A DNA stretch of 52,579 nt, taken from the IMG/VR virus record IMGVR_UViG_2684622554_000006; one strand, given 5' to 3'. The stretch's first letter is position 1. The number at the start of each line of letters is the position of its first letter. Positions 3,154 through 43,499 of the stretch are shown one piece after another. Under the pieces are notes generated by a model that was given only the letters and a program-made list of their open reading frames with translations, was not told where the DNA came from and searched no databases. This stretch comes from a virus (lineage: Duplodnaviria > Heunggongvirae > Uroviricota > Caudoviricetes). A program made the translations under genes and the position numbers.

Positions 3154-3432
3154 ATGACCAAAGAGCATGCACAAGGTGTATTTATCCGTTTTATTGATTT
3201 TCGCGGTGAACTGTTATTACGCGCATCAGCCATTGACGGAGTTGTTCCATCCGAAAAAAATGCAGCTACTTACGTTTATCTGAACGGCACGCGCCTGACC
3301 GTAGAACTTCCGTACCAGACTGTACACGAAATCATTAGCGAAGCGGAAAAAGCACGTAAGACTAATGGCGATGAACCCTATATCGAAATTATTTGTATGG
3401 ATTCAGAAGCAGAAATTCAGAAAGCAGATTAA
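3154..3432 (+). CDS. Hypothetical early-operon protein (92 aa)
   Basis: ATG at 3154 within track ORF 3094-3432; tightly packed with neighbours. Confidence 0.5.
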   Translation: MTKEHAQGVFIRFIDFRGELLLRASAIDGVVPSEKNAATYVYLNGTRLTVELPYQTVHEIISEAEKARKTNGDEPYIEIICMDSEAEIQKAD

Positions 3433-5086: not shown

Positions 5087-5408
5087 GAAACCAGAGCATG
5101 CACACACAAAAAAACCGCTTGCCATGCCGCAATCAGTCAGGTTACATTTCCGCTGCACCTCATAAAACGGGTGCCGGGTTTCGCAGCCTGCTGACTACAC
5201 AAGCGCACAACCGCGCCAGCGGTTTTTTTGTGCGTACTGTATTGCCACGTTTTTTTCGCGTCAGAATTATGGCGGGGCGTACGGGGCCGACTTCGGTCGG
5301 GCCGGGTTCTTGTGTAGCCGGTACTGCGAACCTCGTACGTCTCGCCACCCACAGTTTCGCAGCTCTGGATGGTGAGTTTTCACAACTTACTACACAAGGG
5401 GCCACACC

Positions 5409-5711: not shown

Positions 5712-6077
5712 ATGATTCTCGCCAACGACTTTCTTGAATACCTGCTCAATACAGAACGTGATCTTGCCGCTCGCGTGCGTGATCGTTATGACATGTACCT
5801 GAAATCCCTGCCTGTACCGCAGCTCGCTGACGGAAAGATTGTTATTGATGGTCGCTACATGATTGACAGCCACGAGGGAAATTACAGGCTTTACCGCATT
5901 GAAGGTGGCACCCCGTCCGTTATTGGCATTTACCAGCGCCCATCCTCTGCAATCGTCGATGTGATTGCCGACAGCATCCGCATCACACATCGCCATGCCG
6001 ACACAGAAGACACCGTGCTGGAAATTCAGCGGCTGGCTACAGTCTGCCGCGACACCCTGAATGGCATGACGAAGTAA
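5712..6077 (+). CDS. Hypothetical protein (121 aa) immediately upstream of replication gene A
   Basis: ORF ending 6 nt before the A start. Confidence 0.5.
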   Translation: MILANDFLEYLLNTERDLAARVRDRYDMYLKSLPVPQLADGKIVIDGRYMIDSHEGNYRLYRIEGGTPSVIGIYQRPSSAIVDVIADSIRITHRHADTEDTVLEIQRLATVCRDTLNGMTK

Positions 6078-6083
6078 ATCACT

Positions 6084-8906
6084 ATGACGGCAGAGTACCT
6101 CAGGGACTGGCAACAACCGCGCCACGCAGTGGGGCGTGAAGGAACGGGGATCCCCGCTCCTGAATCCGCGCTTTCCTCCTGGCTGGATGCCTACCGGGCA
6201 GAGAACGAGCGCCGCCAGGAAATGGCTGATGCGGCGTTCTCAGCCACGCCGCTGGGCAACCTGATTAATAAAAGCCTGGACGCACAGGAAAAACAGGACA
6301 AAACCATCACACTGGCAGGAGACGCCAGAAAACAGGCACGTGGCGCGGTGGATGAAGCCATGGCCTCGCTGCGCCTGCTGCCGTCCTATCTGCGCGATCC
6401 GCTTATTCGCCACCTCTCCTTCCTGCGCAAAAAACAGGAAGCCGATCGCCGGAAAGGCAAAAAGAGCTGGCAGGCGGAACGCTATGCACGCGGAACCCTG
6501 CGCAAAATATTCGAACGTCTGGATAGCACTGACGGACGCTGGCTGACACCGGGTTATCGCTCCCTTGCCGGACGCGAACGCCTGGACGATTTGCTTTACC
6601 TGCCGCAGCTCAACAAACACCAGATACAGACGCTGGCCACCATGACGGCGGCGATGTTCAGCAGCACCTTCGAAAAACTCTGCGATGGCTTTGGCGCGAC
6701 CGATGGCGAGCTGACCATGGATGTAACCCTGAAGGCGTATCAGATGCTGGCCCGCATGGCGTTACACCTGCACGCCATGCCTCCACATTATGACGCACTG
6801 ACAACAGACAAAGACCGGAGGAACGAACCGGACACGGAGCTGCTGCCGGGCGCAATCCTTCGCCTGACCTGTGCGGAATGGTGGAAACGCAAACTGTGGC
6901 TGTTACGTTGCGAGTGGAGAGAAGAACAACTCCGCGCCGCCTGTCTGGTTTCCAGAAAAACATCACCCTATCTGAGCCAGGACGCGTTAAGCGAGTTTCG
7001 CGCACAGCGCGAGAAAACACGCGATTTCCTGAAAAGTTTCATGCTGGAAAATGAAGACGGGTTCACGATTGATCTCGAGACAGTGTATTACGCGGGAGTA
7101 AGTAACCCGGTTCACCGTAAGGCAGAAATGATGGCCACCATGAAGGGACTGGAACTTCTGGCCGAAGCCCGTGGCGACAAAGCGGTGTTTCTGACTGTCA
7201 CCTGCCCGTCAAAATACCACGCCACAACGGAGAACGGTCATCCGAATCCCAAATGGAACGGGGCCACAATGCGCGACTCCAGCGATTACCTGGTTAACAC
7301 GTTTTTTGCGGCGGTCCGCAAAAAACTGAACCGCGACGGCCTGCGCTGGTATGGCATCCGCACGGTGGAGCCTCATCATGACGGCACCGTGCACTGGCAT
7401 ATGATGGTCTTTGCACATCCGGAAGAAATCGACACCATTGTGTCCCATACCCGCGATATTGCCATTCAGGAAGACCGCCACGAGCTGGGCAATGATATTA
7501 CTCCGCGCTTTAAGGTGGAGTATGTCGACGGCTCAAAAGGCACGCCAACCAGCTACATCGCCACCTACATCGGAAAGAACCTGGACAGCCGCGCCGTGGA
7601 TGGCATCGACCCGAAAACGGGCAAGCCACGCGTGGACCACGAAACCGGAAAATCAATGGCCGAGAGCGTGGAGCGCGCCATCGGCTGGGCGCGCCTTCAC
7701 CGGGTCCGTCAGTTCCAGTTCTTTGGCATCCCCTCCCGTCAGGTGTGGCGTGAACTGCGCCGCCTTGCCAGCCAGATGGCACGCAATCCGGAAGGCCCGC
7801 AACGGCTGAAAGATGATGCAATGGATGCGGTACTCGCTGCCGCCGATGCCGGGTGTTTTGCCACCTACATTGAAAAACAGGGTGGCGTGCTTGTTCCACG
7901 CAAGGACTACCTGATTCGCACCGCCTACGACCTCGCAGATGAGCTGAACGATTACGGCGAACAGAGCGTACAGATTTACGGGATCTGGTCACCACTCATC
8001 GGGGAATCCTCCCGTGTGTGCACGCATCCGGATAACTGGAAGCTGGTAAGACGTAAACCGGAAGCGGAAGACAGCGCCCGCGAAAATGGTTTTGACCTTC
8101 AGGGCGGCCCTGCCGCCCCTTGGACTCGTGGCAATAACTGTCCCCGTGTACAGGAAACGGACAACAACGGGACAGAACAGCCGGAAGAACGGCCAGCACC
8201 GTGGCCGCAGCTCCCTGACGGCGTTGAAGTGAACGAATGGATGCGCTCACTGAAACGACACGAACGCCGGGCGCTGATGCGTTCGCTTCGTGACAAACAG
8301 GCAAAAAACAGCAGCGATGAAATGCAGAGCTGGACACAGAGCCGCAAACAGCAGCGGCCTTTGCCTGATAACCACGAATTACTCGCTAAAGAATGGCGGG
8401 AGTCTGCTGAATCTCTCGGCCTGCATATCGGTGAACAACAGATGCAGCACCTGTTACGGGGCGGCAGTCTGTACGTTGACGGCAGCATCATTGCACCGCA
8501 GGGATTTGAAATTGTACGCAAACCGGATACCCGCCCGGACAGCCGAATCACGCAGCTCTGGCAGCGCCTGAGCCGTAATCATGGCGTAAGCAGCACGGAG
8601 ATCCGCCATAACCCGGTCGCCAGCTATCTGGCACAGCTGGGGGCATCAGACCCTGAAGCCGCCGCACGCCTGGCATCCACACTTCAGCAGGGCCAGAACA
8701 CCATGAAAACACCCGTTACCGTGCTTTCTGACATGCTGCGCGCCATCCGCGACGCAGAGCACGCACAGAGAATCAGTGAAACCACTGAACGCGCCAGCCG
8801 CAAAGCAGACCTGCTGCGGGGTGGCCTGACCAGTGGAAACAAAAAACAGACAGAAACGGGACTTACGAATCCCGTAAATGAGCAAAAAACGCGCAGCGAT
8901 ATATGA
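6084..8906 (+). CDS. A: Replication initiation protein A (HUH rolling-circle endonuclease)
   Basis: 940-aa ORF with HUH motif (TVHWHMMVFAHPEE) and tyrosine/lysine active-site segment (YIATYIGKNL) typical of P2 gpA-family initiators; RBS and ATG at 6084. Confidence 0.9.
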   Translation: MTAEYLRDWQQPRHAVGREGTGIPAPESALSSWLDAYRAENERRQEMADAAFSATPLGNLINKSLDAQEKQDKTITLAGDARKQARGAVDEAMASLRLLPSYLRDPLIRHLSFLRKKQEADRRKGKKSWQAERYARGTLRKIFERLDSTDGRWLTPGYRSLAGRERLDDLLYLPQLNKHQIQTLATMTAAMFSSTFEKLCDGFGATDGELTMDVTLKAYQMLARMALHLHAMPPHYDALTTDKDRRNEPDTELLPGAILRLTCAEWWKRKLWLLRCEWREEQLRAACLVSRKTSPYLSQDALSEFRAQREKTRDFLKSFMLENEDGFTIDLETVYYAGVSNPVHRKAEMMATMKGLELLAEARGDKAVFLTVTCPSKYHATTENGHPNPKWNGATMRDSSDYLVNTFFAAVRKKLNRDGLRWYGIRTVEPHHDGTVHWHMMVFAHPEEIDTIVSHTRDIAIQEDRHELGNDITPRFKVEYVDGSKGTPTSYIATYIGKNLDSRAVDGIDPKTGKPRVDHETGKSMAESVERAIGWARLHRVRQFQFFGIPSRQVWRELRRLASQMARNPEGPQRLKDDAMDAVLAAADAGCFATYIEKQGGVLVPRKDYLIRTAYDLADELNDYGEQSVQIYGIWSPLIGESSRVCTHPDNWKLVRRKPEAEDSARENGFDLQGGPAAPWTRGNNCPRVQETDNNGTEQPEERPAPWPQLPDGVEVNEWMRSLKRHERRALMRSLRDKQAKNSSDEMQSWTQSRKQQRPLPDNHELLAKEWRESAESLGLHIGEQQMQHLLRGGSLYVDGSIIAPQGFEIVRKPDTRPDSRITQLWQRLSRNHGVSSTEIRHNPVASYLAQLGASDPEAAARLASTLQQGQNTMKTPVTVLSDMLRAIRDAEHAQRISETTERASRKADLLRGGLTSGNKKQTETGLTNPVNEQKTRSDI

Positions 8907-8948
8907 AGCGCGCACAAAACAGGCAAAAACGGGATTTCAGAATCCCGT
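8856..8948. repeat. Two direct copies of a ~25-bp element, each with a 20-bp palindrome (ACGGGACTTACGAATCCCGT at 8856-8875; ACGGGATTTCAGAATCCCGT at 8929-8948)
   Basis: Read directly: both are framed by AAACGGGA...TCCCGTAAA, 73 bp apart, straddling the A stop codon (8904-8906) and lying just upstream of parM. Confidence 0.6.
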
Positions 8949-8982
8949 AAACGATTAATTAATCAACATAAGGAAAAGCGAC

Positions 8983-9942
8983 ATGAAAATTTGTATCGAC
9001 GACGGCTCCACCAACATCAAGCTGGCATGGACTGAGAATGGCGAACGCCGCAACGCCATCAGCCCGAACAGCTTCAAGTCGGAATGGTCTGCGCCGTTCG
9101 GTGGCATGCAGCCCGCGAACTACATGCTTGATGGCGTGCGCTATGGTTTTGATCCGGTTAGCGATCGCTTTGTCCAGACGACCGACACGCAATACCAGTA
9201 CAGCGATGTGAATGTAATCGCCATTCATCACGCGCTGGTCAAATCAGGCATCACGCCACAGGAGGTGGATGTGGTTGTCACCCTGCCACTGAGCGAGTAT
9301 TTCGACACAAACGCACAGCCGGACATGGCCAACATCAACCGCAAAAAAGCGAACGTTATGCGCCCGGTGGAATACCAGAACGGCGAAGCATTCACTATCC
9401 GTAACGTGCGGGTTATGCCTGAATCCATTCCGGCTGGCTTTAAAGCACTGGCTGACATGAGTCCGTTTGAATCCCTGCTGATTGTGGATTTAGGCGGAAC
9501 CACGCTGGATGTGGCAAAGGTTCAAGGGCAACTGGCAGGTATCAGCCAGGTGTTTTGCGATCCACACGTAGGCGTTTCCCTGATGGCCGATGCCGTACTG
9601 TCGGTGATGGCCACTAACGGTATGCGCACCAGTCACCACATCGCCAATACCATTATCGAACATCGCCATGATGAAGCCTGGCTGCGCCAGCACATCCACA
9701 ATGACGCGCATTACGCCAGCCTGATGGCGGTTATTCGTGAAAAGGAAGAAACACTGAAACAACGCGTGATCCGCGCGCTGGCGGTTTTTTCGGGTTACGG
9801 GCGGGTGATGGTTGTCGGTGGAGGGGCGGAGATTGTGGCACCCGCTATCCGCGAAGTCTGCGGAGTTAATGCGACTTTCATCGCGGACGGGGTGCCACAG
9901 TTTGCTCTGGTTAATGGGCTGTACGCAATGGACAAGGAGTAA
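8983..9942 (+). CDS. parM: ParM/StbA-like actin-type plasmid-segregation ATPase
   Basis: N-terminus MKICIDDGSTNIKLAW, phosphate-2 motif LLIVDLGGTTLDVAKV and C-terminal VMVVGGGAE match ParM of plasmid R1 closely; RBS AAGGAAAA. Confidence 0.85.
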   Translation: MKICIDDGSTNIKLAWTENGERRNAISPNSFKSEWSAPFGGMQPANYMLDGVRYGFDPVSDRFVQTTDTQYQYSDVNVIAIHHALVKSGITPQEVDVVVTLPLSEYFDTNAQPDMANINRKKANVMRPVEYQNGEAFTIRNVRVMPESIPAGFKALADMSPFESLLIVDLGGTTLDVAKVQGQLAGISQVFCDPHVGVSLMADAVLSVMATNGMRTSHHIANTIIEHRHDEAWLRQHIHNDAHYASLMAVIREKEETLKQRVIRALAVFSGYGRVMVVGGGAEIVAPAIREVCGVNATFIADGVPQFALVNGLYAMDKE

Positions 9943-9946
9943 ACCA

Positions 9947-10261
9947 ATGACGACACCAACCAGACGGATAAGTTTCTATCTGAAGCCCGCCGCCGTCAAG
10001 AGTGAACAGGAGGCGTGCAATTACCTCGATAGCCTGCCAGCCTCCGAACGCAGCCGCGCGCAACGCGCGGCCTTTCTGGCTGGGCTAGCGCTCATAAAGC
10101 GCAACCCAGCATTTGCCTACTGGATGGCCGAATGGCCAGAGGACAACCTCCCCTTCAATACCGTTAGCATCAAGGAAACATACCAGGATAATCAGCCTAG
10201 CGGAGTTGAATGCAATTTTTATAAAATAAAAAAGAATATTCAGACCTTATTCCCAGAATAA
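9947..10261 (+). CDS. parR: ParR-like centromere-binding adaptor (104 aa)
   Basis: ATG at 9947 with AAGGAG RBS; RRISFYLKP...LDSLPASERSRAQRAAFLAGLAL resembles the R1 ParR N-terminal region; directly downstream of parM. Confidence 0.7.
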   Translation: MTTPTRRISFYLKPAAVKSEQEACNYLDSLPASERSRAQRAAFLAGLALIKRNPAFAYWMAEWPEDNLPFNTVSIKETYQDNQPSGVECNFYKIKKNIQTLFPE

Positions 10262-10310
10262 TCTGATAATTGTATGTGAACTAATAAAATACAGACCAAC
10301 ACATCATTCT

Positions 10311-10333
10311 GGCACCCTTGCTAACAGGGTGCC
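10311..10333. terminator. Stem-loop (GGCACCCT-7 nt-AGGGTGCC) between the parR stop and the 3' end of the minus-strand cassette; possible bidirectional terminator
   Basis: Perfect 8-bp stem read directly; only moderately U-rich flank. Confidence 0.35.
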
Positions 10334-10344
10334 AATGTTTCAAA

Positions 10345-11187
10345 TCATGATGAAATTGCCGAAGTTTTTTTATCGTGCTGAAGTACCGCAAATGCCATTA
10401 AAACCTCAAGAGAATAGCGGCGATAATACTTAACAAAACCATAATAAAATACTCGGGATGCAGCAATACAAAACAAGAGAAGAAAACAAAAAGGTAACAG
10501 TCTGATATTTATATCTATTAAAAAGGATAGAAGGAGCAGGAACATAAGCAACCAGACTGAAGCGAGAAAAACAAATGTAATGTTTCTACAAAAACCATAC
10601 AAAGCAACATAGTTTTGCATTTTCACCTGATGATTTTTAGAATGTTCATACACATAATGATAAGCAAGGCGAAAAAGATCGCCCCTCAAGCCCTTACGTC
10701 GATATAGCGTAGATACAGAAAAAACATTTATATAACCATCTCGTATTTGCGGCCAAAAGACTTTAATAAGTATAGAATGCAGTGTGGTTTTATGATGTTC
10801 TGCTTTATCAAAAGCTGATACAGGAAATAAAAAAACTCCACGAATAAAATTAACTATACTGAACTTAGTATTATGTCGTTTTATTTTCAGGGAGCTTCTT
10901 TTAGAAAACAGATAAATTGAAGGATACCCAAGTTTACTGTTCATGTATTTTTCAATTAAACAGGATGATAGAATAGATATGAAGTGACCTGAAATATATG
11001 ATAGAACGATTAATACCACATATATAAATACACTTATTATTTCTTTATATTTCAGGATATGGTTAAGAATACCTTCTATATAAACAGGGTTAATTTCAAT
11101 AGAAAACAAAAAAAGGATAAACAGGAATAACCCACCTGGAATTAGATAGCCCAAAAAGTCATAAAATGAAAACGGATTCTGTGTCAC
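10345..11187 (-). CDS. Hypothetical polytopic membrane protein (280 aa): two N-terminal and two C-terminal TM segments around a ~130-aa basic, aromatic-rich loop
   Basis: Intact ORF in a strongly AT-rich island; hydrophobic segments LGYLIPGGLFLFILFLFSI, IISVFIYVVLIVLSYISGHFISILSS, VFLASVWLLMFLLLLSFLI and LLPFCFLLLFCIAASRVFYYGFV; no family recognised. Confidence 0.6.
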   Translation of the reverse strand: MTQNPFSFYDFLGYLIPGGLFLFILFLFSIEINPVYIEGILNHILKYKEIISVFIYVVLIVLSYISGHFISILSSCLIEKYMNSKLGYPSIYLFSKRSSLKIKRHNTKFSIVNFIRGVFLFPVSAFDKAEHHKTTLHSILIKVFWPQIRDGYINVFSVSTLYRRKGLRGDLFRLAYHYVYEHSKNHQVKMQNYVALYGFCRNITFVFLASVWLLMFLLLLSFLIDINIRLLPFCFLLLFCIAASRVFYYGFVKYYRRYSLEVLMAFAVLQHDKKTSAISS

Positions 11188-12447: not shown

Positions 12448-12972
12448 ATGGTCATTAATTACAAGCAGTTAAGAGAAAAACGGGAGCAGGTAAAGGAGAG
12501 CTTTCGCCGCAATGAAGATCTGACCCCGCTTGTACGCCTTGCCCAGGGCATTGTTGATGCTTATGAAATCTCGCTGGAGCTGCCATCACAGACCTGGACA
12601 GATAGCGACGGTAATCGCCAGCATTACGTTTCATGCGGACTGGAAGCAGCCGAAGGATTTCGCAGAATGCCTTTATCCCAGATCCCTGCCGCTACCCCCA
12701 AAGCACGGGGCAGCAATGATGAGCGAAAACTGACTTTTAGTATTGAAACGGTGGTTGACGACACACCTGGCGAAGTCGCGTTCGTGCACACTCCTGTTTC
12801 GATCGCAATGTATAACGATGAAATACAGGTTCGCGTTAATAATAATATCGTGCCACTTAAAGAAGGTAATTCACCCTACACCACCGTTTGTGAAGCCATT
12901 CAATATTACGTTCTCTCTGAAATTGATAATCTCAAGCCTGACGGCACCCAGAAAATGGTTCAACTCTGGTAA
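12448..12972 (+). CDS. Hypothetical protein (174 aa) convergent with the portal gene
   Basis: ATG at 12448 with GGAGG RBS, inside track ORF 12409-12972; no motif recognised. Confidence 0.5.
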   Translation: MVINYKQLREKREQVKESFRRNEDLTPLVRLAQGIVDAYEISLELPSQTWTDSDGNRQHYVSCGLEAAEGFRRMPLSQIPAATPKARGSNDERKLTFSIETVVDDTPGEVAFVHTPVSIAMYNDEIQVRVNNNIVPLKEGNSPYTTVCEAIQYYVLSEIDNLKPDGTQKMVQLW

Positions 12973-20207: not shown

Positions 20208-20599
20208 AGCTCTGGCCCACGCTTGGCGTCGCTTTCCTTCTGATTACATCCATGCGTCTGTCGTGGTCGCTGGGCCGGGAGAACGCCAGAAACGAAGCGC
20301 AGGCCAGCACCCTGAAAAGTACCGTCGACACACTGAATATCATCAGCGCCGGGGTACAGGATATGCAGCAGGTGCTGGCTCAGCTCCGCGCGGAAAATCA
20401 GCAACGCAATCAGGACGGAGAGGTAAGACGTGAACAGCTACGCAACGATATTGCAAAAGATGAATGCGCCCACGCTTTGCCTGACGCTCGTTTTACTGAC
20501 AGGTTGCGCAGGCACGCAGAACGCGCCAGGGCCAGCGCCGTCAGTCCGGCTTATACCGCAGACGCTGACCATGCCGGTAACGCCTCCCCCCTTCCCTGA
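20204..20599 (+). CDS. Inner-membrane spanin (Rz/LysB-like)
   Basis: ATG overlaps the endolysin stop; N-terminal TM (MKLWPTLGVAFLLITSM) followed by a coiled-coil-like region. Confidence 0.6.
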   Translation: MKLWPTLGVAFLLITSMRLSWSLGRENARNEAQASTLKSTVDTLNIISAGVQDMQQVLAQLRAENQQRNQDGEVRREQLRNDIAKDECAHALPDARFTDRLRRHAERARASAVSPAYTADADHAGNASPLP

Positions 20600-20741
20600 C
20601 CCACCCACATGGGGAAACCTCGGAATATGGGGCGACCGCCTTCTGGATGCACTGGAAACCTGTAACGCGGATAAACGGGCCATTGCTGAACTGGATAAGA
20701 GAATAGCCGAACTGACACACCAGACGGGAGTAACACAATGA
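20460..20741 (+). CDS. Outer-membrane lipoprotein spanin (Rz1/LysC-like), embedded in the +1 frame of the i-spanin
   Basis: Lipobox LLTGC after a signal-like segment; proline-rich mature part; embedded architecture typical of Rz/Rz1. Confidence 0.6.
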   Translation: MNAPTLCLTLVLLTGCAGTQNAPGPAPSVRLIPQTLTMPVTPPPFPDPPTWGNLGIWGDRLLDALETCNADKRAIAELDKRIAELTHQTGVTQ

Positions 20742-22614
20742 CCAGTAAGAACTTTGCACTGATTACAGCCATGACACAGGCTGAACTGACTCAAAAGGTG
20801 AATGAACATCTTGCGAAAGGGTGGCATCTTCAGGGGAGACGCGGGTTGCCTACGAACCCGGCACCCCGTGGTATCTAATGCAGGCAATGGTGGCCGATGG
20901 CACTACAGACATCTCACCTGATTCCCCCCAGCACGGCAGCGTGCCGGAGTGGTATTACGTGGTGGTACTTGCTGGTCAATCCAATGCCATGTCATATGGT
21001 GAGGGAATGCCGCTGCCGGATTCTTACGATGCGCCCCACCCACGCATTAAGCAACTGGCCCGTCGCAACACAGTGACTCCCGGTGGTAAAGCATGCGCAT
21101 TTAACGACATCATTCCGGCAGACCACTGCCTGCATGATGTTCAGGATATGAGCGCACTGAATCACCCGAATGCAGACCTGAGCAAAGGGCAGTATGGCTG
21201 TGTCGGACAGGGCTTGCATATTGCCAAACGCCTGTTGCCTTACATTCCACAGAATGCCGGGATTTTACTGGTTCCATGCTGTCGTGGTGGTTCGGCATTC
21301 ACCCAGGGCGCGGAGGGGACATTCAGCGAGTCCACAGGAGCCAGTCAGGATTCGGCTCGCTGGGGTGTGGGTAAACCTTTATATCAGGACCTGATTTTGC
21401 GCACGAAGGCCGCATTGCAGAAAAACCCAAAAAACATGCTGCTGGCCGTATGCTGGATGCAGGGCGAATTTGACATGAGCGCCGCTACGTACTCACAGCA
21501 ACCTCCGCTGTTTACGGCCATGCTGAAACAGTTTCGTGCGGACATTACCGAGTTTAACACGCAGTGTCATGGAGGCAGAGCGGCAAGTGTGCCATGGATT
21601 TGTGGTGACACGACGTATTACTGGAAAAACACCTACGGCACGCAGTACGACACCATTTACGGGGCGTACAAAAACAGGGAGAGCGACAACGTTTTCTTTG
21701 TGCCGTTCCTGACCGATGGTAGTGGCAACAATACCTCCACCAACGCACCAACGGAAGATCCGGATGCTGCAAGTGAGGGATATTACGGTTCGGCATCCCG
21801 AACGAACAAAAACTGGGTATCATCAAATCGCCAGACGCATTTCAGCTCATGGGCGCGTCGTGGCATTATTCCCGATCGTATGGCAACCGCTATTCTGAAC
21901 GTAGCCGGTCGCACCTTAGCCTTCATCAGTGGTAAGGCACCGGAAATCAAACCCTCGCCCGGCGGCGACACGCCATCGGGGCCGTCTGAAGATGCATCCG
22001 TACGCACAATCTCCCTGTTGCCGACAGCCGGAGATGCTGCTGCGCAGGGCTGGAGCATTAAGAATGGCGGAATTCAGTTGTCAGAGGGTGTATTTAAGAT
22101 CACCAAGCAGAGCAATAAAGCCTGGTCCCTGACGCGCCCGGTGGATGACGCAGTCTCCCTGCTGACACGGGGTGGCAGACTGAGCTGTAAGTTTCGACTG
22201 TCAGGCGCACTGACCAACAATCAGTTCGGTCTGGGAATTTATCTGTATACCGATGTAGCGTTACCTGACGTCGTGGCGATGACCGGGACTGGTAACCCGT
22301 TCCTGATGTCGTTCTTCACCCAGACCACAGACGGCAAACTGAATCTGATGCATCACAAGAAAGCAGGAAACACAAAGTTGGGCGAGTTCGGGAATTACAG
22401 TAACGACTGGCAGACGCTGGAGCTGGTGTTCACCGCCGGCAGTGCCACGGTTACTCCGAAACTGAATGGAGTGGCTGGCCCGGCATTCCAGGTCATAAAA
22501 GACAGTCTGACACTGGGGCTGAATGCGCTGACGTTAACTGATATCACTAAAAATGCCGCGTACGGCGTCGATATCGGCAGCCTGGTGCTGGAAATCAATA
22601 ATCCCGCAGCATAA
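20741..22614 (+). CDS. DUF1737-SGNH/SASA esterase with C-terminal beta-rich domain (NanS-p-like 9-O-acetyl-sialate esterase candidate); domains separated by a frameshift as given
   Basis: N-terminal MTSKNFALITAMTQAELTQKVNEHLAKGWHLQG (20741-20887) is out of frame with the main ORF 20821-22614, which carries VVVLAGQSNAMSYGEG (GQSN serine block). Copy 2 (33506 onward) reads through this junction, so the break lies in the C-run at 20863-20869. Confidence 0.65.
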
Positions 22615-22637
22615 GGAAGAGCAGGAGAGCAAAACAG

Positions 22638-23104
22638 ATGCTTAAGACAAACAGTCTGCGAGAGTCCATGCTTCATGGGTGTCGGTGGTGCCAGGCTAAT
22701 CCCGAGAAATTCACCATTTTCGTGGAGAGCGGCAACATTGAAACGACCGGAGAAGCGCCCTCGTTTGTTTACCGCTATCAGATGGTGATGTTTGTCATGG
22801 ATTACGCCGGAGAGCTGGACGACCTCACGCTGCCGCTGCTGGCGTGGTTATCCGAAAATCAGCCACAGTTGTTGCTCAATCCGGAGCGTAATCAGGACAT
22901 CAAATTTTCTGCCGTTATCAATGACGATGACAGCGCCGATCTCCTGTTTACGCTCCCCTGCGGGAACGCGTTCGCATCACGCGCAACAGTCAGGGCACAC
23001 CGCAGGCAGAACACCTGCCGGAGCCAAAACCCCGTCTGCCTTCTTCCGAAGGCGACTGGTCGCATGTATTCCAGGATGTGACGTGGGGTGAAAGCGATGG
23101 ATAA
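22638..23104 (+). CDS. R: Tail completion protein (P2 gpR family), C-terminus frameshifted in this copy
   Basis: N-terminal 110 aa are identical to the copy-2 ORF (35468-35851) that continues to ...VTWGESDG; copy 1 has CCCC versus CCCCC at about 22966. Confidence 0.65.
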
Positions 23105-23732
23105 GGCATTCACCCGCGTGGATGAAACCTTTGAGGCTATCCGCGACAGCCTGAATCAGCAGGCCATCAATAACATCGCCAGAAAGCTGGCACAGGATTT
23201 ACGTCGCGCCCAGCAGGCACGTATCCGGTCACAAAAAGCGCCGGACGGGACCGAATGGACACCACGCAGACGCCGCGTAACCCGGATACAGGAGCGCATT
23301 CGCTTTATCTGGAATAACGAAGCACGCACGCTGAAAAACTGGCATCACGACACAGGGAAATACGGGCGAACCATTACCGGGTGGGATGAGGATAAAAACA
23401 ATATCCGCACGTTTTACCGGGATGACATCGACCGTTTTCTGGAAATACGCACCCGGCGCATCAACCAGGACAGCACAAAGCGCGTCCCCATGTTCGTAAA
23501 ACTGCGCACCGCCCGCTACCTGAAAGCCCGTGCAGATGCCTCCGGTGTGACGGTGGGTTACAGCGGCGTGGCCGCACGTATTGCACGCGTTCATCAGTTC
23601 GGTGAGCGCGATCAGGTTGCGCCGGGCATTTTCACCGATTACCCGGTACGTGAGCTGTTGGGTATCAGCCAGGCAGATGAGCGCCTGATTTATAACACGG
23701 TGCTGGGCCGGATTGCGGAGGCTGTACGGTGA
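23097..23732 (+). CDS. S: Tail completion / virion morphogenesis protein (P2 gpS family)
   Basis: ORF overlapping the R stop; position between R and V. Confidence 0.65.
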   Translation: MDKAFTRVDETFEAIRDSLNQQAINNIARKLAQDLRRAQQARIRSQKAPDGTEWTPRRRRVTRIQERIRFIWNNEARTLKNWHHDTGKYGRTITGWDEDKNNIRTFYRDDIDRFLEIRTRRINQDSTKRVPMFVKLRTARYLKARADASGVTVGYSGVAARIARVHQFGERDQVAPGIFTDYPVRELLGISQADERLIYNTVLGRIAEAVR

Positions 23733-24310
23733 GCGCAGAACTCATGCGACTGCTGAGCAACATCATCCGCACCGGGATCATCTCTGAAGTTGATGAGAAG
23801 TCCTGGCGCGTGCGCGTTCGCAGCGGCGAACTGGAAACAGGCTGGTTGCGCTGGAACACCACGCGCGCGGGAGCCTTCAATGTGTGGCTGCCGCCATCAC
23901 CAGGCGAACAGGTGGTAATTGCCTGCATTGGCGGCAACCCGGAAACCGCCATGATAATTGGCAGCCTGTGGAGTGATGCCAGTCCGGCCCCCGGCAAAAG
24001 CCTGAAAGAAATCGTGGTCAGCGCGCCGGATGGCGCGGTGTTCCGCTACGACGCAGACGCTGGCGCACTGAGCGCCAGCGGCATGAAAACAGCCACCCTG
24101 CAGGCATCCGTCAGCGTGACACTGGATACGCCCGTCGTGGAATGCACAAACCTTCTGAGAACGGCGACGCTTGACGTCACAAAAGAGGGAAAGATGAGCG
24201 GCAATATCACGCACAGCGGCGGCAATTTCACCTCAAACGGCATTACCGTGCATACGCATAAGCACGGTGGCGTTAAAGGTGGCAGCGATTCGACAGGAGG
24301 CCCGCAGTGA
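23729..24310 (+). CDS. V: Baseplate assembly/spike protein (P2 gpV family)
   Basis: 193-aa ORF in the gpV position of the V-W-J-I-H-G order. Confidence 0.8.
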   Translation: MSAELMRLLSNIIRTGIISEVDEKSWRVRVRSGELETGWLRWNTTRAGAFNVWLPPSPGEQVVIACIGGNPETAMIIGSLWSDASPAPGKSLKEIVVSAPDGAVFRYDADAGALSASGMKTATLQASVSVTLDTPVVECTNLLRTATLDVTKEGKMSGNITHSGGNFTSNGITVHTHKHGGVKGGSDSTGGPQ

Positions 24311-24657
24311 CAACCCGCTACACAGGAATGAACCCGGACGGGACGGGAAACCTGAACGATATGGAGCACCTGAAACAGTCAGTCAGGGACATCCTGATCA
24401 CCCCGCTGGCAAGCCGGGTTATGCGACGGGAATATGGCAGCCTTGTGCCTGATTTGATTGACGAACCCATGAATAACACCACGCGTCTGCAATGCATGAG
24501 TGCTGCCGTGATTGCGCTGACACGATGGGAACCCCGCATTGCCCTGGACGCCATCGACGTTGTCTGGAAGGCAGGAGGCCGCGCCGGGGTGACGCTGTCG
24601 GGCACTGTCATGCAGACCATGCAGAATGTTGAATTAACCATCACGCTGAGAGAGTAA
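24307..24657 (+). CDS. W: Baseplate wedge protein (P2 gpW, gp25-like)
   Basis: 116-aa ORF (GTG start) overlapping the V stop; size matches gpW. Confidence 0.8.
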   Translation: MTTRYTGMNPDGTGNLNDMEHLKQSVRDILITPLASRVMRREYGSLVPDLIDEPMNNTTRLQCMSAAVIALTRWEPRIALDAIDVVWKAGGRAGVTLSGTVMQTMQNVELTITLRE

Positions 24658-24660
24658 ATC

Positions 24661-25557
24661 ATGCCTGCTGTTGATCTTTCCCAGTTACCGGAACCCGCCA
24701 TCATCGCGGAGCCTGATTTTGAGGCAATTCTGGCTGACACAAAGGCCATGATGATTGCGTCCTATCCTGCCGAACAGCGTGAAGCCGTCTCCGCCGCGCT
24801 GGAGCTGGAATCAGAACCCCTGAACGTTATCGCTCAAACCATGTCGTTTCGTGAAATGCTGTTACGCCAGCGGGTTAACGAGGGCGCACGCGCCTGCATG
24901 TTAAGCCACGGTTCAGGGACAAACCTGGACAACCTCGCGGGCAATATGAACACAAAGCGCCTGGTTATCACTCCGGCAACGGATACCACCGACGCGGTGA
25001 TGGAGAGCGACACCTCGCTGAGACTGCGGGCGCAGCGGGCGTATGACGGCCTGAGTGTTGCTGGCCCGTCAGGTGCATACGAGTATTTTGCACGCAGCGC
25101 CAGCGGTCTGGTGCGTGATGCGCGGGCCATCAGCCCGTCTCCGGCCTGTGTGACGGTTTCCATTCTGTCCACTGAAGGCGACGGCACAGCAACGGAGGCG
25201 TTGCTTAATACCGTTCGCGCCGTTCTGAATGCAGAGGATACCCGCCCGGTGGCCGACCGACTGACCGTACAGAGCGCCAGCATCGTGACATGGCGGCTGA
25301 ATGCAAAACTGTACTTTTACCCCGGCCCGGAATCCGAACCTATTCTGGCTGCGGCTGAATCGTCGTTCAGGAAGTGGCTGGCTGAGCAGGGGCTTATTGG
25401 TCAGGACGTGGCGTTGTCAGCCATTGCTGCCGCACTTCATGTGCACGGCGTGCAACGCGTGGAGATAATCGAACCCACACAGAATATGGCCATCAGCGAC
25501 ATACAGGCGGCGCGCTGTGAGTCATTCACCATCAGCGAAGGTGGGCGTAATGAGTAA
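24661..25557 (+). CDS. J: Baseplate protein J (P2 gpJ family)
   Basis: 298-aa ORF; position and size match gpJ. Confidence 0.85.
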   Translation: MPAVDLSQLPEPAIIAEPDFEAILADTKAMMIASYPAEQREAVSAALELESEPLNVIAQTMSFREMLLRQRVNEGARACMLSHGSGTNLDNLAGNMNTKRLVITPATDTTDAVMESDTSLRLRAQRAYDGLSVAGPSGAYEYFARSASGLVRDARAISPSPACVTVSILSTEGDGTATEALLNTVRAVLNAEDTRPVADRLTVQSASIVTWRLNAKLYFYPGPESEPILAAAESSFRKWLAEQGLIGQDVALSAIAAALHVHGVQRVEIIEPTQNMAISDIQAARCESFTISEGGRNE

Positions 25558-26080
25558 TTCACTGTTACCGCCATCAGCCAGCAATTTCATGCGTTGCGCC
25601 GAAGCTGTCGGAGCGCGCATTACAGACATCCCGGTAGACCTCAACACGCTGTGGTCACCGGACACCTGCCCGGTGCATCTGCTGCCTTATCTCGCCTGGG
25701 CATTTTCCGTTGACCGCTGGGATCGCAACTGGCCGGAAGAGACAAAGCGACAGGTGATTCGTGATGCATGGCTGATACACCGACACAAAGGGACCATCAG
25801 CGCACTGCGCCGGGCCATTGAGCCGCTGGGATACCTCATTCGCGTGTCTGAGTGGTGGGAGTTCGGCGGAGAACCGGGAACATTTACCGTTGAAGTCGGC
25901 ACGCTGGACAGTGGCGTGACGGAGGAAATGTATCTGGAAATGGAGCGGTTGATTGCTGATGCCCGCCCGGTCAGCCGCCACATGACAGGGCTGAATATCA
26001 TTCAGGAGATTCAGGGAGATATTTTCGCGGCGGCAGCAACTTACGACGGCGAAGTCATTACCATTTATCCGGACGATTAA
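25550..26080 (+). CDS. I: Baseplate/tail protein I (P2 gpI family)
   Basis: ATG at 25550 gives 176 aa, matching gpI; overlaps the J stop. Confidence 0.8.
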   Translation: MSNSLLPPSASNFMRCAEAVGARITDIPVDLNTLWSPDTCPVHLLPYLAWAFSVDRWDRNWPEETKRQVIRDAWLIHRHKGTISALRRAIEPLGYLIRVSEWWEFGGEPGTFTVEVGTLDSGVTEEMYLEMERLIADARPVSRHMTGLNIIQEIQGDIFAAAATYDGEVITIYPDD

Positions 26081-26082
26081 GC

Positions 26083-28056
26083 ATGAGTACCACAACACGT
26101 AAATTTAAAACCGTTATCACCGATACGGGTGCCAAAAAATTAGCTCAGGCAGCCGCGCCAGATGGTAAGCCTGTCCGCCTGACTCATATGGCCGTGGGCG
26201 ACGGTGGCGGCACGTTGCCCACACCAGACAGTAAGCAGACCCGTCTGGTGCATGAGGTGTGGCGACATACTGTTAATCGCGTCATCCTGGACGCAACACA
26301 TCAGAACCGCATTATTGCGGAGCTGGTTATTCCTCCTGAAACGGGCGGATTCTGGATCCGGGAAATTGGTGTATTTGATGAGCACGGCGATTTAATCGCG
26401 GTGGGCAATACTGCCGAAAGTTACAAGCCAGCCGTTGCCGAAGGGTCCGGTCGTGCACAAACATTTCGCACCATTCTGACCGTATCCAGCACTGCCACCG
26501 TGGTGCTTACCGTGGATAACACCATGGTGATGGCCACAGTGGATTACGTGGATGACAAACTGAAAGAGCATGAACAGTCACGACGTCACCCGGACGCCTC
26601 GCTGACCGCAAAAGGCTTTGTTCAACTCAGTAGCGCCACTAACAGCGTGTCTGAAACGCAGGCTGCAACGCCGAAAGCAGTAAAGGCCGCGTATGACCTT
26701 GCTAACGGTAAATATACTGCGCAGGATGCCAGCACGACGCGAAAAGGCCTTGTCCAGCTCAGTAGCGCCACCAACAGCACGTCTGAAACGCAGGCTGCAA
26801 CGCCGAAAGCAGTAAAGGCCGCGTATGACCTTGCTAACGCAAAATATACCGCTCAGGACGCCACGACGGCACAAAAAGGGATAGTCCAGCTCAGTAGTGC
26901 CACCAACAGCACGTCTGAAACACTGGCCGCGACATCGAAAGCTGTTAAGGCGGTAATGGATGAAACGAACAAGAAAGCGCCCTTAAATAGTCCTGCACTG
27001 ACCGGAACGCCAACAACACCAACTGCGCGACAGGGAACGAATAATACCCAAATCGCAAGCACGGCTTTCGTTATGGCTGCGATTGCCGCCTTGTAGATTC
27101 GTCACCTGATGCACTGAACACGCTGAACGAGCTGGCTGCGGCGCTGGGCAACGACCCGAATTTTGCGACCACCATGACTAACGCGCTTGCGGGTAAGCAA
27201 CCGAAAGATGCCACCCTGACGGCGCTGGCCGGACTTACTACTGCGGCAGGCAAGTTTCCGTATTTTACGGGGAATGATGTCGCCAGCCTGCAACCCTGAC
27301 AAAAGTCGGGCGGGATATTCTTGCGAAATCGACCGTTGCTGCCGTTATCGAATACCTCGGTTTACGAGAACTCGGCACAAGCGGGGAGAAAATACCGTTA
27401 CTCAGTACAGCGAATACCTGGACCAATCGACAAACATTCAGCGGTGGCCTTTCTGGGGAACTGTCCGGCAATGCCGCTACTGCAACAAAGCTGAAAACAG
27501 CACGAAAATTGCTGGAGTGGTTTTGATGGTTCTAGCGATATTTCAATTAGTGCCAAAAATGTCAATGCATTTGCACTCCGACAAACAGGTAATACTGTTA
27601 ATGGTGATACATCCGTTGGATGGAATTGGGATAGTGGTGCATATAACGCATGATTGGTGGTGCATCTGCATTAATTCTTCACTTTAATATAATGCTGGTA
27701 GCTGTCCTGCGTACAATTCCGTGTGAATTATAAAAATGGTGGATTTCCTACAGGTCGGCTCGTGATGGTTATGGGTTTGAATTGGTTGGTCAGATTTCTA
27801 TACCACGACACGAAAACCTTCAGCGGGAGATGTTGGTGCATATACGCGGACAGAATGTAACTCAAGGTTTATTACAGGTATTCGCCTTGGCGGTCTGTAT
27901 CTGTTCAGACATGGAATGGTCCCGGCTGGTCTGACAGGTCAGGTTATGTCGTTACGGGTTCAGTTAACGGAAACCGTGATGAATTAATTGATACAACACA
28001 GGCAAGGCCAATTCAGTATTGCATTAATGGACGTGGTATAACGCGGGGAGTATTTA
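26083..28056 (+). CDS. H: Tail fibre protein H: conserved N-terminal part plus invertible C-terminal host-range part; interrupted by frameshifts as given
   Basis: N-terminal 337 aa intact (26083-27096) with three [25 protein letters not shown] repeats; a premature TAG at 27094 is caused by GCCGCCTTG versus GCCGCCCTTG in copy 2; the reading frame continues in other frames to the stop at 28054-28056. Confidence 0.7.
27345..27370. promoter_or_regulatory. Left crossover site of the invertible segment (gix/cix-like, inside H)
   Basis: TTATCGAATACCTCGGTTTACGAGAA is the inverted counterpart of the right site; 17 bp are shared, including the ACC-GA-GGT core. Confidence 0.65.
27355..27460. repeat. 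Left arm of a ~105-bp inverted repeat flanking the invertible tail-fibre segment
   Basis: The reverse complement of 29982-30088 matches 27355-27460 almost base for base (compared by eye). Confidence 0.7.
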
Positions 28057-28058
28057 AC

Positions 28059-28594
28059 GATGATGCACTTAAAAAACATTACTGCTGGCAACCCTAAAAC
28101 AAAAGAGCAATACCAGCTAACAAAGCAATTTAAACATCAAATGGCTTTATTCAGCTGATGGAAAAAACTGGTATGAGGAACAAAAAGAATTTCCAGCCAG
28201 ACACTTTGAAAATGGTCTATGACCATAACGGCGTTATTATTTGTATTGAAAAGGATGTTTCAGCAATTAATCCGGAAGGCGCAAGCGTCGTTGAATTACC
28301 TGATATTACAGCAAATCGCCGGCTGATATTTCGGGGAAATGGATGTTCAAAGATGGCGTAGTGGTAAAGCGAACTTATACCGAGGAAGAGCAGAGGCAAC
28401 AAGCGGAAAATGAAAAGCAGAGCCTGTTGCAACTTGTCAGGGATAAAACTCAGCTATGGGACTCACAGCTACGGCTGGGCATCATTTCCGACGAGAATAA
28501 ACAAAAATTAACCGAGTGGATGCTCTATGCGCAGAAAGTCGAATCCACAGACACCTCCAGCCTGCCAGTAACATTTCCCGAACAACCTGAATGA
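28059..28594 (+). CDS. G: Tail fibre assembly chaperone (gpG/Tfa), frameshifted in this copy
   Basis: [25 protein letters not shown]-terminus; copy 2 (40796-41305) reads as a 169-aa ORF; copy 1 has an extra A at about 28126. Confidence 0.65.
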
Positions 28595-28622
28595 GACAAG
28601 GCCCGATAACGGGCCTTAATTT

Positions 28623-29150
28623 TTATTCAGGCTTTTGTGGCCATTCAGGATTTGCCGTATCCACACGGTTGACCAGAACACTGTAGCGTTCCCATGCTTC
28701 CAGTCGTGTGCGTTCCTCGTCTGTTGCCATATTCAGCCTGACAGCGCGTTCCAGCGGCTGGATGACTGATTCAGCTTCGGAAAGCAATGCGGCCTTTTGT
28801 GATTCGGCCTGTTGTTGCTGTTCGTCAGCCGTATAAATCCGTTTAACCACAGCTCCGTCCTTAAACATCCACTTACCGGAATCATCGGTCCGACGATTGG
28901 CCGTTATATCGGGAACCTCGACGACGCTAAAACCTTCGGGATTAAGCGTGGAGGCATCTCTGGTGATGGCGACAATAATATTATTTTCATCGTAAACAAT
29001 CTTTATGGTGTCTGGCTGAAAGTTTTTCACTTCCTCATACCAGTTTTTTCCGTCCTCAGAGTAAAGCCAGATAACTCCGTGTTTCTTTGTTAACTCATAC
29101 TGTTCCAGTGTTTTAGCATTACCCGCTTTTATGTTCTTTAAGTGCATCAT
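28623..29150 (-). CDS. Alternative tail fibre assembly chaperone (Tfa') in the invertible segment
   Basis: 175-aa intact [26 protein letters not shown]..., paralogous to tfa and on the opposite strand. Confidence 0.8.
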
Positions 29151-29154
29151 ATTA

Positions 29155-30065
29155 AACGCTCGCTACATTATACCAGGTGCCATTTATATACTTTTGAACG
29201 GGTCTGTAATAAACACCCGCTATATTATCGGCAGAGTTAGACCCTGTATCCTGAACATTAATACCAGACAATACATGACCTGAAGGGCACTGGAAATTCA
29301 TGTTCGCCAGTTGTTCACTCCATAATATTGCTGTGAACCAAGTCGAACATCTTTCACATAACGGGAATCAAAGTTACCGTAATCCGAGGGATTAACACGC
29401 CCCGTAATATTTATGGTCTTATTACTTTGAATGCTTCCGGGAACAAAGCGCATAACATGGACGTAATTAGCATAAACATCCAGATTACCATCGCCATTTT
29501 GTTTAAAGCCCGTGTCATTATCACCCAATACAATCGAATTACGCAAGAGCACTGGATGTTCCGATACCCAGTGCACCATTCAGTTGACCACGCAGATAAC
29601 GGCAGTGCACCAACATCTCCTGCTGAAGGTTTTCTGGTGGTGGTGTAAAATTCGGACCAGTCGGCTTCAAACCATAACCATCACGGGCTGAACGATAAAA
29701 ATACCGCCATTTTTATAATTAATCCGAAACTGAGCTGCAGGACAACTTCCGTCTCCATATAAAAATGAATAATTAACGTTGATGCACCACCAATATTTGC
29801 GTTATAGGCTCCGCTACTCCAGTTCCATCCAACTGCTTTATCATTCGCAACGGTGCTTCCTGTTTTCCTAAGGCAAACGCACCAACATGACTTGCTTTTA
29901 ATGTGATATCGGAGGAACCATCAAAAGCCACATTGCTTATTTTCCTGGCAGTTTTTATTTTGCAGCTGTAGAAGCATTGCCGGATAGTTCACCAGAAAGG
30001 CCACCGCTGAATGTTTGTCGATTAGTCCAGGTATTCGCTGTACTGAGTAACGGTATTTTCTCCCC
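29155..30065 (-). CDS. Alternative tail-fibre C-terminal (receptor-binding) cassette H', promoterless until inversion; frameshifted as given
   Basis: Minus-strand coding potential from the right crossover site down to the tfa' start, in several frames (for example track ORF 29298-29579). Confidence 0.45.
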
Positions 30066-30088
30066 GCTTGTGCCGAGTTCTCGTAAAC
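29982..30088. repeat. Right arm of the ~105-bp inverted repeat
   Basis: Reverse complement matches 27355-27460. Confidence 0.7.
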
Positions 30089-30103
30089 CGAGGTTTTAAA
30101 TAA
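30078..30103. promoter_or_regulatory. Right crossover site (gix/cix-like)
   Basis: TTCTCGTAAACCGAGGTTTTAAATAA matches the gix consensus TTCCTGTAAACCGAGGTTTTGGATAA at about 22 of 26 positions (from memory). Confidence 0.7.
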
Positions 30104-30158
30104 TGGCCGTTTCTGGCCTGCATGGCATGATTTGCTGCTTTTGGACGGGAGATTCAGT

Positions 30159-30761
30159 GTGCTGATTGGCTATGTAAGGGTATCAACAAATGACCAGAAT
30201 ACAGACCTGCAACGAAACGCTCTTGTTTGTGCAGGATGTGAACAAATATTTGAAGATAAATTAAGCGGGACAAAGACAGACCGACCGGGATTTAAAACGC
30301 GCTTTAAAGCGCCTTCAAAAAGGTGACACGCTGGTTGTCTGGAAACTGGATCGCCTCGGGCGAAGCATGAAACATCTGATTTCTCTCGTCGGGGAACTAC
30401 GGGAGCGAGGGATTAATTTTCGCAGTCTGACCGACAGCATAGACACATCTTCTCCAATGGGGCGTTTTTTCTTCCACGTGATGGGTGCCTGGCTGAAATG
30501 GAACGTGAATTAATTGTTGAACGTACACTGGCCGGGCTGGCGGCAGCGCGCGCAAGGGGGCGCACAGGCGGACGTCGACCGAAGCTGACAAAAGAACAGC
30601 ATGAGCAAATAGCAAGGCTAATCAAAAACGGGCACGACAGAAAACAACTGGCAATAATTTACGGCATTGGCACATCGACGATTTATCGTTATCACCCTGT
30701 AGCGATATACAGACTGAAGAAACAACCGGGCAGACTCAGGAAAATGAAAACCGCTATCTGA
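30159..30761 (+). CDS. pin: Serine DNA invertase (Pin/Gin/Cin/Hin family); frameshifted at about 30290 and 30490 as given
   Basis: GTG start; [38 protein letters not shown] is near-identical to e14 PinE as I recall it, including the catalytic Ser in VRVSTNDQ; an intact frame can be reconstructed by combining both copies. Confidence 0.8.
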
Positions 30762-30777
30762 CCATTAGCGGTTTTTG
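30749..30777 (+). terminator. Rho-independent terminator after the invertase
   Basis: AACCGCTA-loop-TAGCGGTT followed by TTTTTG. Confidence 0.5.
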
Positions 30778-30831
30778 TGTTAAATCAGAACAGCCCTTTA
30801 ACTGAACTGGCCGCGCTGTTAAGAGATGATG

Positions 30832-31278: not shown

Positions 31279-31289
31279 GACTCCTCAAT

Positions 31290-35361: not shown

Positions 35362-35384
35362 GGAAGAGCAGGAGAGCAAAACAG

Positions 35385-35851: not shown

Positions 35852-35854
35852 GGC

Positions 35855-38814: not shown

Positions 38815-38816
38815 GC

Positions 38817-40793: not shown

Positions 40794-40795
40794 CG

Positions 40796-41327: not shown

Positions 41328-41354
41328 AGACAAGGCCCGATAACGGCCTTAATT

Positions 41355-42793: not shown

Positions 42794-42872
42794 TCTCGTA
42801 AACCGAGGTTTTAAATAATGGCCGTTTCTGGCCTGCATGGCATGATTTGCGCTTTTGGACGGGAGATTCAGT

Positions 42873-43471: not shown

Positions 43472-43499
43472 TCTGACCATTAGCGGTTTTTGTGTTAAA

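Follow-up and report, generated by a model that had tools for sequence, protein, structure and literature searches.

Type II partition systems

Characterised type II partition loci have their centromere immediately upstream of parM (PMC2241845, PMC4489591). In plasmid R1, this centromere (parC) consists of two sets of five 11-bp direct iterons that flank the par promoter, which is repressed by ParR (PMC2241845). The srpMRC module of the SXT/R391 integrative and conjugative elements acts on the transient circular form of these elements, and its SrpR protein has no recognisable similarity to ParR (PMC4489591). In prophage CGP3 of Corynebacterium glutamicum, AlpAC is switched on soon after the prophage is induced, and the efficient replication and transport of phage DNA depend on it (PMC5539076, PMC4446434). 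The subject here is a pair of palindromic repeats upstream of parM in the IMG/VR virus record IMGVR_UViG_2684622554_000006, a stretch of 52,579 nucleotides that was analysed at its full length and is called the window. The window carries a P88-like prophage (Xuanwuvirus, Peduoviridae, P2-type) in which gene A (6084-8906), parM (8983-9942), and parR (9947-10261) follow one another on the + strand. On balance, the 115 bp at 8840-8954 are probably a parC-like, ParR-binding centromere of a phage-borne ParMR module of the R1 family (type II).

The locus has the composition of a type II ParMRC system, with a gene for a ParM ATPase, a ParR gene immediately downstream, and repeated cis sites directly upstream of parM. 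It resembles R1 parC in its ParM and ParR families, in the placement of the cis site, in its phased AAAAC-type boxes, and in having two repeat clusters around a central segment, which measures 31 bp here and 39 bp in R1 (PMC2241845). It differs from R1 in that the clusters are two 42-nt units with one 20-bp palindrome each and no recognisable promoter, in that the distal unit overlaps the end of the upstream gene, and in that the host element is an integrating phage. With srpMRC it shares the occurrence of a type II partition module in a normally integrated element. However, the ParR of the window is a clear member of the StbB family, whereas SrpR is not ParR-like, and srpC binding and plasmid stabilisation have been shown experimentally (PMC4489591), whereas the corresponding functions of the phage system are predicted. 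AlpAC likewise pairs an actin-like protein of a prophage with a DNA adaptor, which in that system binds repeated sites (alpS) upstream of its own operon. It differs in that neither the adaptor nor the actin-like protein is of a related family, in that alpS consists of many copies of a short TTAAnnG repeat, and in its Gram-positive host. By analogy, AlpAC is a plausible model for the role of parMR in a P2-like prophage. Plasmid ParMR loci with ParM 47-62% identical share the gene order, the ParR family, and two repeat clusters upstream of parM, but their TTCTC-type or other 11-bp iterons flank a good sigma-70 promoter, which scores at least 9/12 in 27 of 35 loci and is sited between the iteron clusters. 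No description of ParMRC in P88/Xuanwuvirus, of its parC, or of its cis site was found in the literature, and the palindromes are most likely a component that was to be expected in a system of known kind but had not yet been described.

Anatomy of the repeats

The candidate centromere comprises two direct-repeat units of 42 nt that are 83% identical and lie 73 bp apart, start to start. Repeat unit 1 (8840-8881) is proposed as the left edge of the par module and its distal ParR-binding cluster; it contains palindrome 1, ACGGGACTTACGAATCCCGT (8856-8875), with the cores CGGGA and TCCCG. Repeat unit 2 (8913-8954), the proposed proximal cluster, contains palindrome 2, ACGGGATTTCAGAATCCCGT (8929-8948), a perfect 8+8 inverted repeat with a 4-nt centre. 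In the window, palindrome 1 is interrupted by a single C.A mismatch (position 7/14), while most relatives have T at position 7 and hence a perfect palindrome. Between the units lies the central segment of 31 bp (8882-8912), without a recognisable promoter, which holds a fifth AAAAC box (8887) and the stop codon of A (TGA, 8904-8906). Repeat unit 1 is read through by the last ~22 codons of gene A, and the A-parM spacer of 76 bp accommodates repeat unit 2 and a conserved proximal leader (8955-8982, + strand) with a TTAATCAA element and the parM ribosome-binding site AAGGA (8970-8974). A sequence-only reading of this DNA had placed two 20-bp palindromes at 8856-8875 and 8929-8948, one in the last codons of A and the other in the spacer, and both are found there; its spacing of 73 bp also holds, whereas the direct repeats, which it gave as ~25 bp, extend over 42 nt.

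A search for the 20-bp motif, proposed in the same reading, returned only the two sites in 52.6 kb when up to two mismatches were allowed (0.02 expected; the observed count was reached in 0 of 100 shuffles). No repeats were found downstream of parR, and the upstream pair represents the only repeats in the module. In addition to the palindromes, the top strand contains five AAAC[GA][GC][GA] boxes (8844, 8854, 8887, 8917, and 8927), a pattern picked post hoc for which ~0.14 boxes would be expected in 115 bp. These boxes are located at -0.95, 0, 3.14, 6.0, and 6.95 helical turns from the first core, and their phasing is reminiscent of R1 parC, with its curvature and its A-rich 11-bp iterons (PMC2241845). 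The possibility that the repeat codes for a repeated peptide was rejected, since a spacing of 73 cannot be divided by 3, copy 2 is located past the stop codon, and many variants carry frameshifts.

Both palindromes can also form hairpins, with RNA folding energies of about -9 to -11 kcal/mol on either strand. On the + strand, neither palindrome is followed by a U-run. On the minus strand, each forms an 8-pair stem followed by a T-run (TTTTTGCCTGT and TTCTGTCTGT), and a terminator scan calls both terminator-like. Given the minus-strand T-runs and the folding, three readings must be separated, namely DNA sites for a protein, RNA hairpins on the + strand, and terminators on the minus strand. The sequence-only reading had dismissed terminators for want of U-runs, which is correct for the + strand and incorrect for the minus strand; the terminator reading is instead disfavoured because no minus-strand gene ends there and the hairpin is unconserved in relatives. 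It is thus quite unlikely that the palindromes are Rho-independent terminators for antisense transcripts running back through parM into A. Each minus-strand stem does have four G-C pairs, a 4-nt loop, and a T-run, the hairpins (about -10 kcal/mol) have z of about -2.7, and T-runs follow some palindromes on the same strand in a group of Serratia/Enterobacter phage relatives (group S; L006, L048, L049, and L133-L135). However, the nearest plausible minus-strand gene (10345-11187) ends 1.4 kb away, beyond parMR, no credible minus-strand promoter occurs in 8950-9120, and copy 1 is situated inside the A coding region. On the minus strand, frequent variants such as A1 to G and C18 to T introduce A.C mismatches. 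Plesiomonas, Hafnia, and the -120 site of group S keep the CGGGA box and the A-run but show no conservation of the hairpin.

Linkage to parM and nucleotide constraint

Among close relatives, 77 distinct upstream haplotypes were compared, 75 of which have both repeat copies. The repeats lie at -126 and -53 from the parM ATG with the spacing of 73 bp in 73 of the 75 haplotypes, and the pair is kept across Escherichia, Salmonella, and Citrobacter phages. In two independent mosaics, L120/L183 and L149, the upstream sequence is unrelated and homology to the window begins at the first bases of repeat 1 (~8841). In L149, a separate open reading frame (ORF) of 159 amino acids (aa) stops 40 nt before repeat 1, and both repeats are intergenic. 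The coincidence of two mosaic junctions with the left edge of repeat 1 indicates that the repeats are part of the par module and not of A.

These mosaics bear on the alternative that the palindromes are sites for a different protein, which could be the A replication protein (at a replication origin or terminus) or some other regulator from the phage or the host. In favour of this, copy 1 extends over the end of gene A, the origin of P2 is internal to its gene A, and sequences that form hairpins are often the targets of HUH-type initiators. Nevertheless, the repeats or boxes stay with parM when A is replaced or separated from it (L149, L120, L044, and L049), and no further copy of the motif occurs in the prophage, for example in the early promoter/operator region. 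The motif is also unlike TGT-N12-ACA, the Ogr/Delta late-promoter dyad. Binding by the A protein, which the sequence-only reading had listed as a candidate, is disfavoured because the repeats follow parM when the upstream gene changes, and the alternative as a whole is improbable.

Frameshifts in the A tail, caused by changes in A-run length, occur in many haplotypes; the C-terminal peptides differ as a result while the repeat-1 nucleotides stay, so coding constraint is no explanation for the conservation. As a separate observation, a 31-codon ORF in L149 (~3325-3424), preceded by a good Shine-Dalgarno sequence (MKRINANTKAKKQTETGFTNPVNEQKTRRDI), runs through repeat 1 in the frame of the A tail to the same stop, and a 155-aa ORF in L120 likewise passes through repeat 1 in this frame to the same stop. 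A small peptide overlapping repeat 1 (window 8840-8906) is therefore conceivable, though the frameshift variants argue against it. A natural deletion of 73 bp was also observed in L072 (IMGVR_UViG_2657245439_000011), which is left with one palindrome and a changed A tail, apparently through recombination between the two repeat units.

Nucleotide diversity (pi) was calculated from 77 gap-free haplotypes, with third codon positions of A (0.066) and parM (0.053) serving as the reference. The CGGGA/TCCCG cores have a pi of 0.013 in copy 1 and 0.034 in copy 2, which is 2-5-fold below the third codon positions. The A-runs (0.027) and the proximal leader at 8955-8982 (0.030) also show low values, and higher ones are found in the central 4 nt (0.10, and 0.26 in palindrome 2) and the outer A/T pair (0.15). 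Changes in the arms are one-sided and include frequent alleles that create mismatches, such as C7 in copy 1. No compensatory pair changes were detected among the 75 haplotypes, a test whose power is limited because the sequences are closely related. This pattern agrees better with a dimeric protein that recognises half-sites than with selection acting on a stem.

The same data address the proposal that the palindromes act as + strand RNA hairpins in the A-parM mRNA, with a role in RNA processing, RNA stability, or translational coupling. Local folding into stable hairpins (-9.0 and -10.7 kcal/mol; z of -3.0 and -3.6) with A-rich single-stranded flanks is in line with this proposal, as are the common variants A1 to G and C18 to T, which preserve pairing on the + strand as G.U wobbles. 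It is nonetheless unlikely, given that compensatory double changes are absent from the 75 haplotypes and that the frequent C7 allele produces a C.A mismatch. The outer and inner stem pairs vary like neutral sites, with only the 5-bp cores constrained, and the relatives in Plesiomonas and Hafnia have the boxes but lack the hairpin. Furthermore, Rfam covariance models gave no match in 8700-9100 at E values up to 1, and copy 1 is part of a translated region, in which passing ribosomes would open a hairpin.

Distant relatives

ParM relatives at 54-62% identity with recovered context are all encoded in P2-like prophages, in the order A, zero to two extra ORFs, parM, and parR. In Hafnia (L044) and Enterobacter (L049), genes are located between A and parM, yet CGGG/GGGA boxes adjoin parM at matching positions, with CGGGTTCATTAAATCCCA in this place in Hafnia. 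The TTAATCAA..AAGGA leader is common to the window, Hafnia L044, and Plesiomonas L047. Plesiomonas L047 contains two direct repeats, GCGGGACAACA(AA/CT)AACCC(G/A), on either side of the A stop. The first of these, CGGGA-N8-ACCCG (CGGG-N10-CCCG), has the core spacing of the window and an interior without a stable hairpin, and the second is degenerate in its right half (CCCA). In group S, AAAAACGGGAAC is kept at about -120 and includes the 13-mer GGCAAAAACGGGA, which belongs to the proximal copy in the window but stands at about -120 in group S. The group S box forms one arm of a longer inverted repeat, the other arm of which is at about -55. Clade-wide, 20 GGGA boxes are observed at about -120 and -55 against 7.6 expected. 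On these comparisons, the box, the A-tract, and the two-site layout appear to be conserved, while the hairpin and the minus-strand T-run do not.

Group S has further features of its own. From about -125 to -50, an 18-bp inverted repeat, GGGAACGAAATAGAAAAAT ... ATTTTTCTATTTCGTTCCC, surrounds a short G+C hairpin and is followed by a CCGTTTAAACGG palindrome. L048 has one apparently compensated change at the outer arm position. ParM relatives of 60-90% identity are thinly sampled. Searches of IMG/VR with the Hafnia/Plesiomonas ParM sequences gave no confirmed relative for P0014 and one locus for P0016 (L131, a duplicate of L135), and a ParM of 81% identity (P0018) is at a contig end, its upstream DNA being absent from the contig.

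Among plasmid relatives of the same ParR family, L007, L011, L012, and L016 possess palindromic TCTCAATTTGAGA sites. The statement in the sequence-only reading that a palindromic centromere would be atypical was thus too strong, and the architecture is unusual, not unprecedented.

Several observations weigh against a centromere at this position. The architecture departs from that of R1 parC, with two palindromes and no promoter in place of two sets of five direct 11-bp iterons around a promoter, and both palindromes are good look-alikes of terminators on the minus strand. The repeat units overall have a pi of 0.032 and 0.080, which is not below the flanking genes, and constraint is confined to the cores. 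Even there, the common variant C18 to T (14 haplotypes) changes one core, and L072 is a natural variant without one whole unit. Group S has a different layout in the form of its long inverted repeat, and the shared box could be a coincidence. Finally, the statistics on the motifs were drawn up post hoc, and related sequences enter into them, those behind the GGGA count being partly related.

The lack of overall conservation also raises the possibility of a functionally neutral tandem duplication of 73 bp at a recombination hot spot between modules, in keeping with the one-unit deletion in L072 and the clustering of mosaic junctions here. This is very unlikely, since two copies persist at a fixed spacing of 73 bp in 73 of 75 haplotypes from phages of several host genera, the cores are less diverse than third codon positions, and the two-site layout (about -120 and -55) recurs where ParM is only 54-62% identical.

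ParM, ParR, and the proposed mechanism

ParM and ParR are members of the R1 StbA and StbB families. The parM gene (8983-9942, + strand) encodes an actin-like segregation ATPase of 319 aa with matches to Pfam StbA_N (2.7e-82) and the ParM C-terminal domain (1.1e-68), and residues 2-316 match R1 ParM structures with an E value of 1e-92. The parR gene (9947-10261, + strand) starts 4 nt past the parM stop and encodes a ribbon-helix-helix adaptor of 104 aa (Pfam PF10784 Plasmid_stab_B, 7.7e-29). Residues 8-58 of ParR align with the ribbon-helix-helix N-terminal domain of pB171 StbB/ParR (2JD3; E 0.012). ParR ends in KKNIQTLFPE, a tail similar to R1 KKNAMKLIN and to xRxNAxxLF in relatives; in R1, the C-terminal tail of ParR is the contact with ParM.

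The part of ParR that would contact DNA includes the beta-strand RRISFYLKP. Over 62 alleles of the P88 group, the strand PTRRISFYLKP is nearly invariant, the exceptions being two single-residue singletons, and the phage clade in full has R[RK][IV]SFYL[KN]P in common. Plasmid relatives with other repeats differ in this strand, which reads RRKITFYLNP in those with TTCTC iterons, RRKLTYYVHP in those with TCTCAATTTGAGA palindromes, and RRTIAFKLNP in R1. The C-terminal tail is also retained among the hypervariable alleles. Outside these segments, ParR of the P88 group is hypervariable, with 62 distinct sequences, two allele families, and a very variable linker at residues ~60-95. Alleles in databases descend to ~51-74% identity next to ParM proteins that are 98-99% identical, and diversifying selection or recombination may act on the adaptor.

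The mode of action envisaged here, from ParR binding and its stoichiometry to centromere function and the timing of expression, is inferred from sequence. With the beta-ribbon at their N-terminus (RRISFYLKP), ParR dimers would enter the major groove at the inverted CGGGA/TCCCG cores, and each 20-bp palindrome would be occupied by a pair of dimers. The weaker A-tract boxes (AAAAC-R-S-R) on one face of the helix may aid this binding. With the clusters 73 bp apart (~7 helical turns), a single ParR-DNA complex could assemble and capture the ends of ParM filaments via the conserved C-terminal tail of ParR. The proposed target is phage DNA in circular form, either excised or in replication, or a plasmid-like state, and not the integrated prophage.

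Promoter and expression

No candidate sigma-70 promoter above 8/12 was found on either strand in 8780-9120. The best match upstream of parM in the window is 7/12, which, with two palindromes and weak AAAC boxes, distinguishes the locus from the R1-type parC architecture. Each of the 11 phage-clade loci checked has a best match of 7-8/12 within the 200 bp that precede parM. Without a sigma-70 candidate, an R1-style operator between the repeats is unsupported. The sequence-only reading had offered protein-binding sites as its general interpretation, and this is partly supported as a whole. Of its candidates, a parC-like centromere or operator for parMR is the best supported on comparative evidence, with the autoregulatory operator itself uncertain in view of the contrast in promoter matches between the phage-clade loci and the plasmid relatives.

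The terminator scan called no + strand terminator after gene A. The absence of such a terminator and of a recognisable promoter suggests that parMR is probably read from the early lytic operon of the phage, and probably from there only. It follows that parMR is likely silent in the lysogen, which would avoid centromere action on the host chromosome.

Beyond the probable centromere, a broader role can be put forward only tentatively. The R1-type ParMR pair and its two-palindrome centromere, promoterless and situated in the early operon of a P2-like phage, might constitute a DNA-positioning machine of the lytic cycle (or plasmid state). In this form, the machine would stay off in the lysogen and, upon induction or infection, would move or separate the circles of replicating phage DNA. 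Alternatively, it might serve stable plasmid-like carriage, as a circular 'plasmid' record of 34.5 kb suggests. This record (NZ_CP148288.1, L203), 34,461 bp in length and entered as E. coli plasmid pZ1323PEC0009-2, shows the A, parM, and parR arrangement of the window in the 3.3 kb that were inspected and is of the size of a P88-like phage genome, which hints at an episomal or excised state.

Prophage setting

Three phage records match the region 6000-10400 at 100% identity, and P88, Citrobacter phiSM, and others match it at 93-98%. Gene A (6084-8906, + strand) encodes a replication endonuclease of 940 aa (Pfam Phage_GPA, E 5e-131). The A proteins of other P2-like phages are ~140-180 aa shorter than the P88-type protein and can be aligned with it only to ~residue 800, and in related phages the position of residues ~800-940 is taken by a separate ORF of 155-167 aa. 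This suggests a gene fusion or split. In order to see whether the repeats vanish along with the module, phages with the P88-type C-terminal extension of A but without parMR were sought, and none were found in the phage collection.

Just upstream of the A operon genes, adjoining a homologue of a 'derepression protein', Rfam models match isrK (65 bits; 5155-5229) and C4 antisense RNA (83 bits; 5265-5352) on the + strand. This region is a P1/P7-type c4/ant-like immunity element within a P2-like phage. The late/tail region of the prophage occurs in a direct duplication of ~12.7 kb (20369-32567 and 33142-45289, ~100% identical). The start-to-start spacing shifts from 12713 to 12773, which implies many small indels, and few long ORFs are present in 27-47 kb. 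The duplication may be either a real tandem duplication or an assembly artefact.

Distribution and implications

The 42-nt unit was found in 1301 of 5426 complete E. coli genomes (~24%), where it is almost always chromosomal and has a median of one place per genome; one weaker match, in E2348/69, was checked by annotation and has the same A, parM, and parR context. In IMG/VR, the core pattern lies at -126 and/or -53 of a P88-type parM in 53 of 79 examined loci, and three more are the ends of P88-like contigs. The other 23 loci are unrelated single matches, about the number expected by chance on a rough estimate for a 14-base pattern, and all paired copies are at -126/-53 upstream of a P88-type parM. 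A dispersed element resembling repetitive extragenic palindromic (REP) sequences was considered and rejected on account of the two copies in the window, the one place per genome, and the restriction of pairs to the region upstream of parM. The motif is accordingly not a generic repetitive element, an outcome that would have spoken against the sequence-only reading.

If ParR does bind these sites, P88-type prophages would own a complete and compact ParMRC system of ~1.4 kb with a centromere of 115 bp. An R1-family ParR would here have a minimal centromere of natural origin, with four core half-sites instead of ten iterons, which would be useful for establishing the number of ParR dimers required for the capture of a ParM filament. 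Given its presence in ~24% of complete E. coli genomes, the system would rank among the commonest actin-like segregation systems in the species. It also poses the testable question of why an integrating P2-like phage found in about a quarter of these genomes keeps a plasmid-segregation machine that is apparently expressed only with the lytic genes of the phage. The few precedents are AlpAC of CGP3 and srpMRC of SXT/R391. Such a system would also bear on the boundaries between phages and plasmids and on a possible incompatibility of prophages and plasmids that share ParR specificity.

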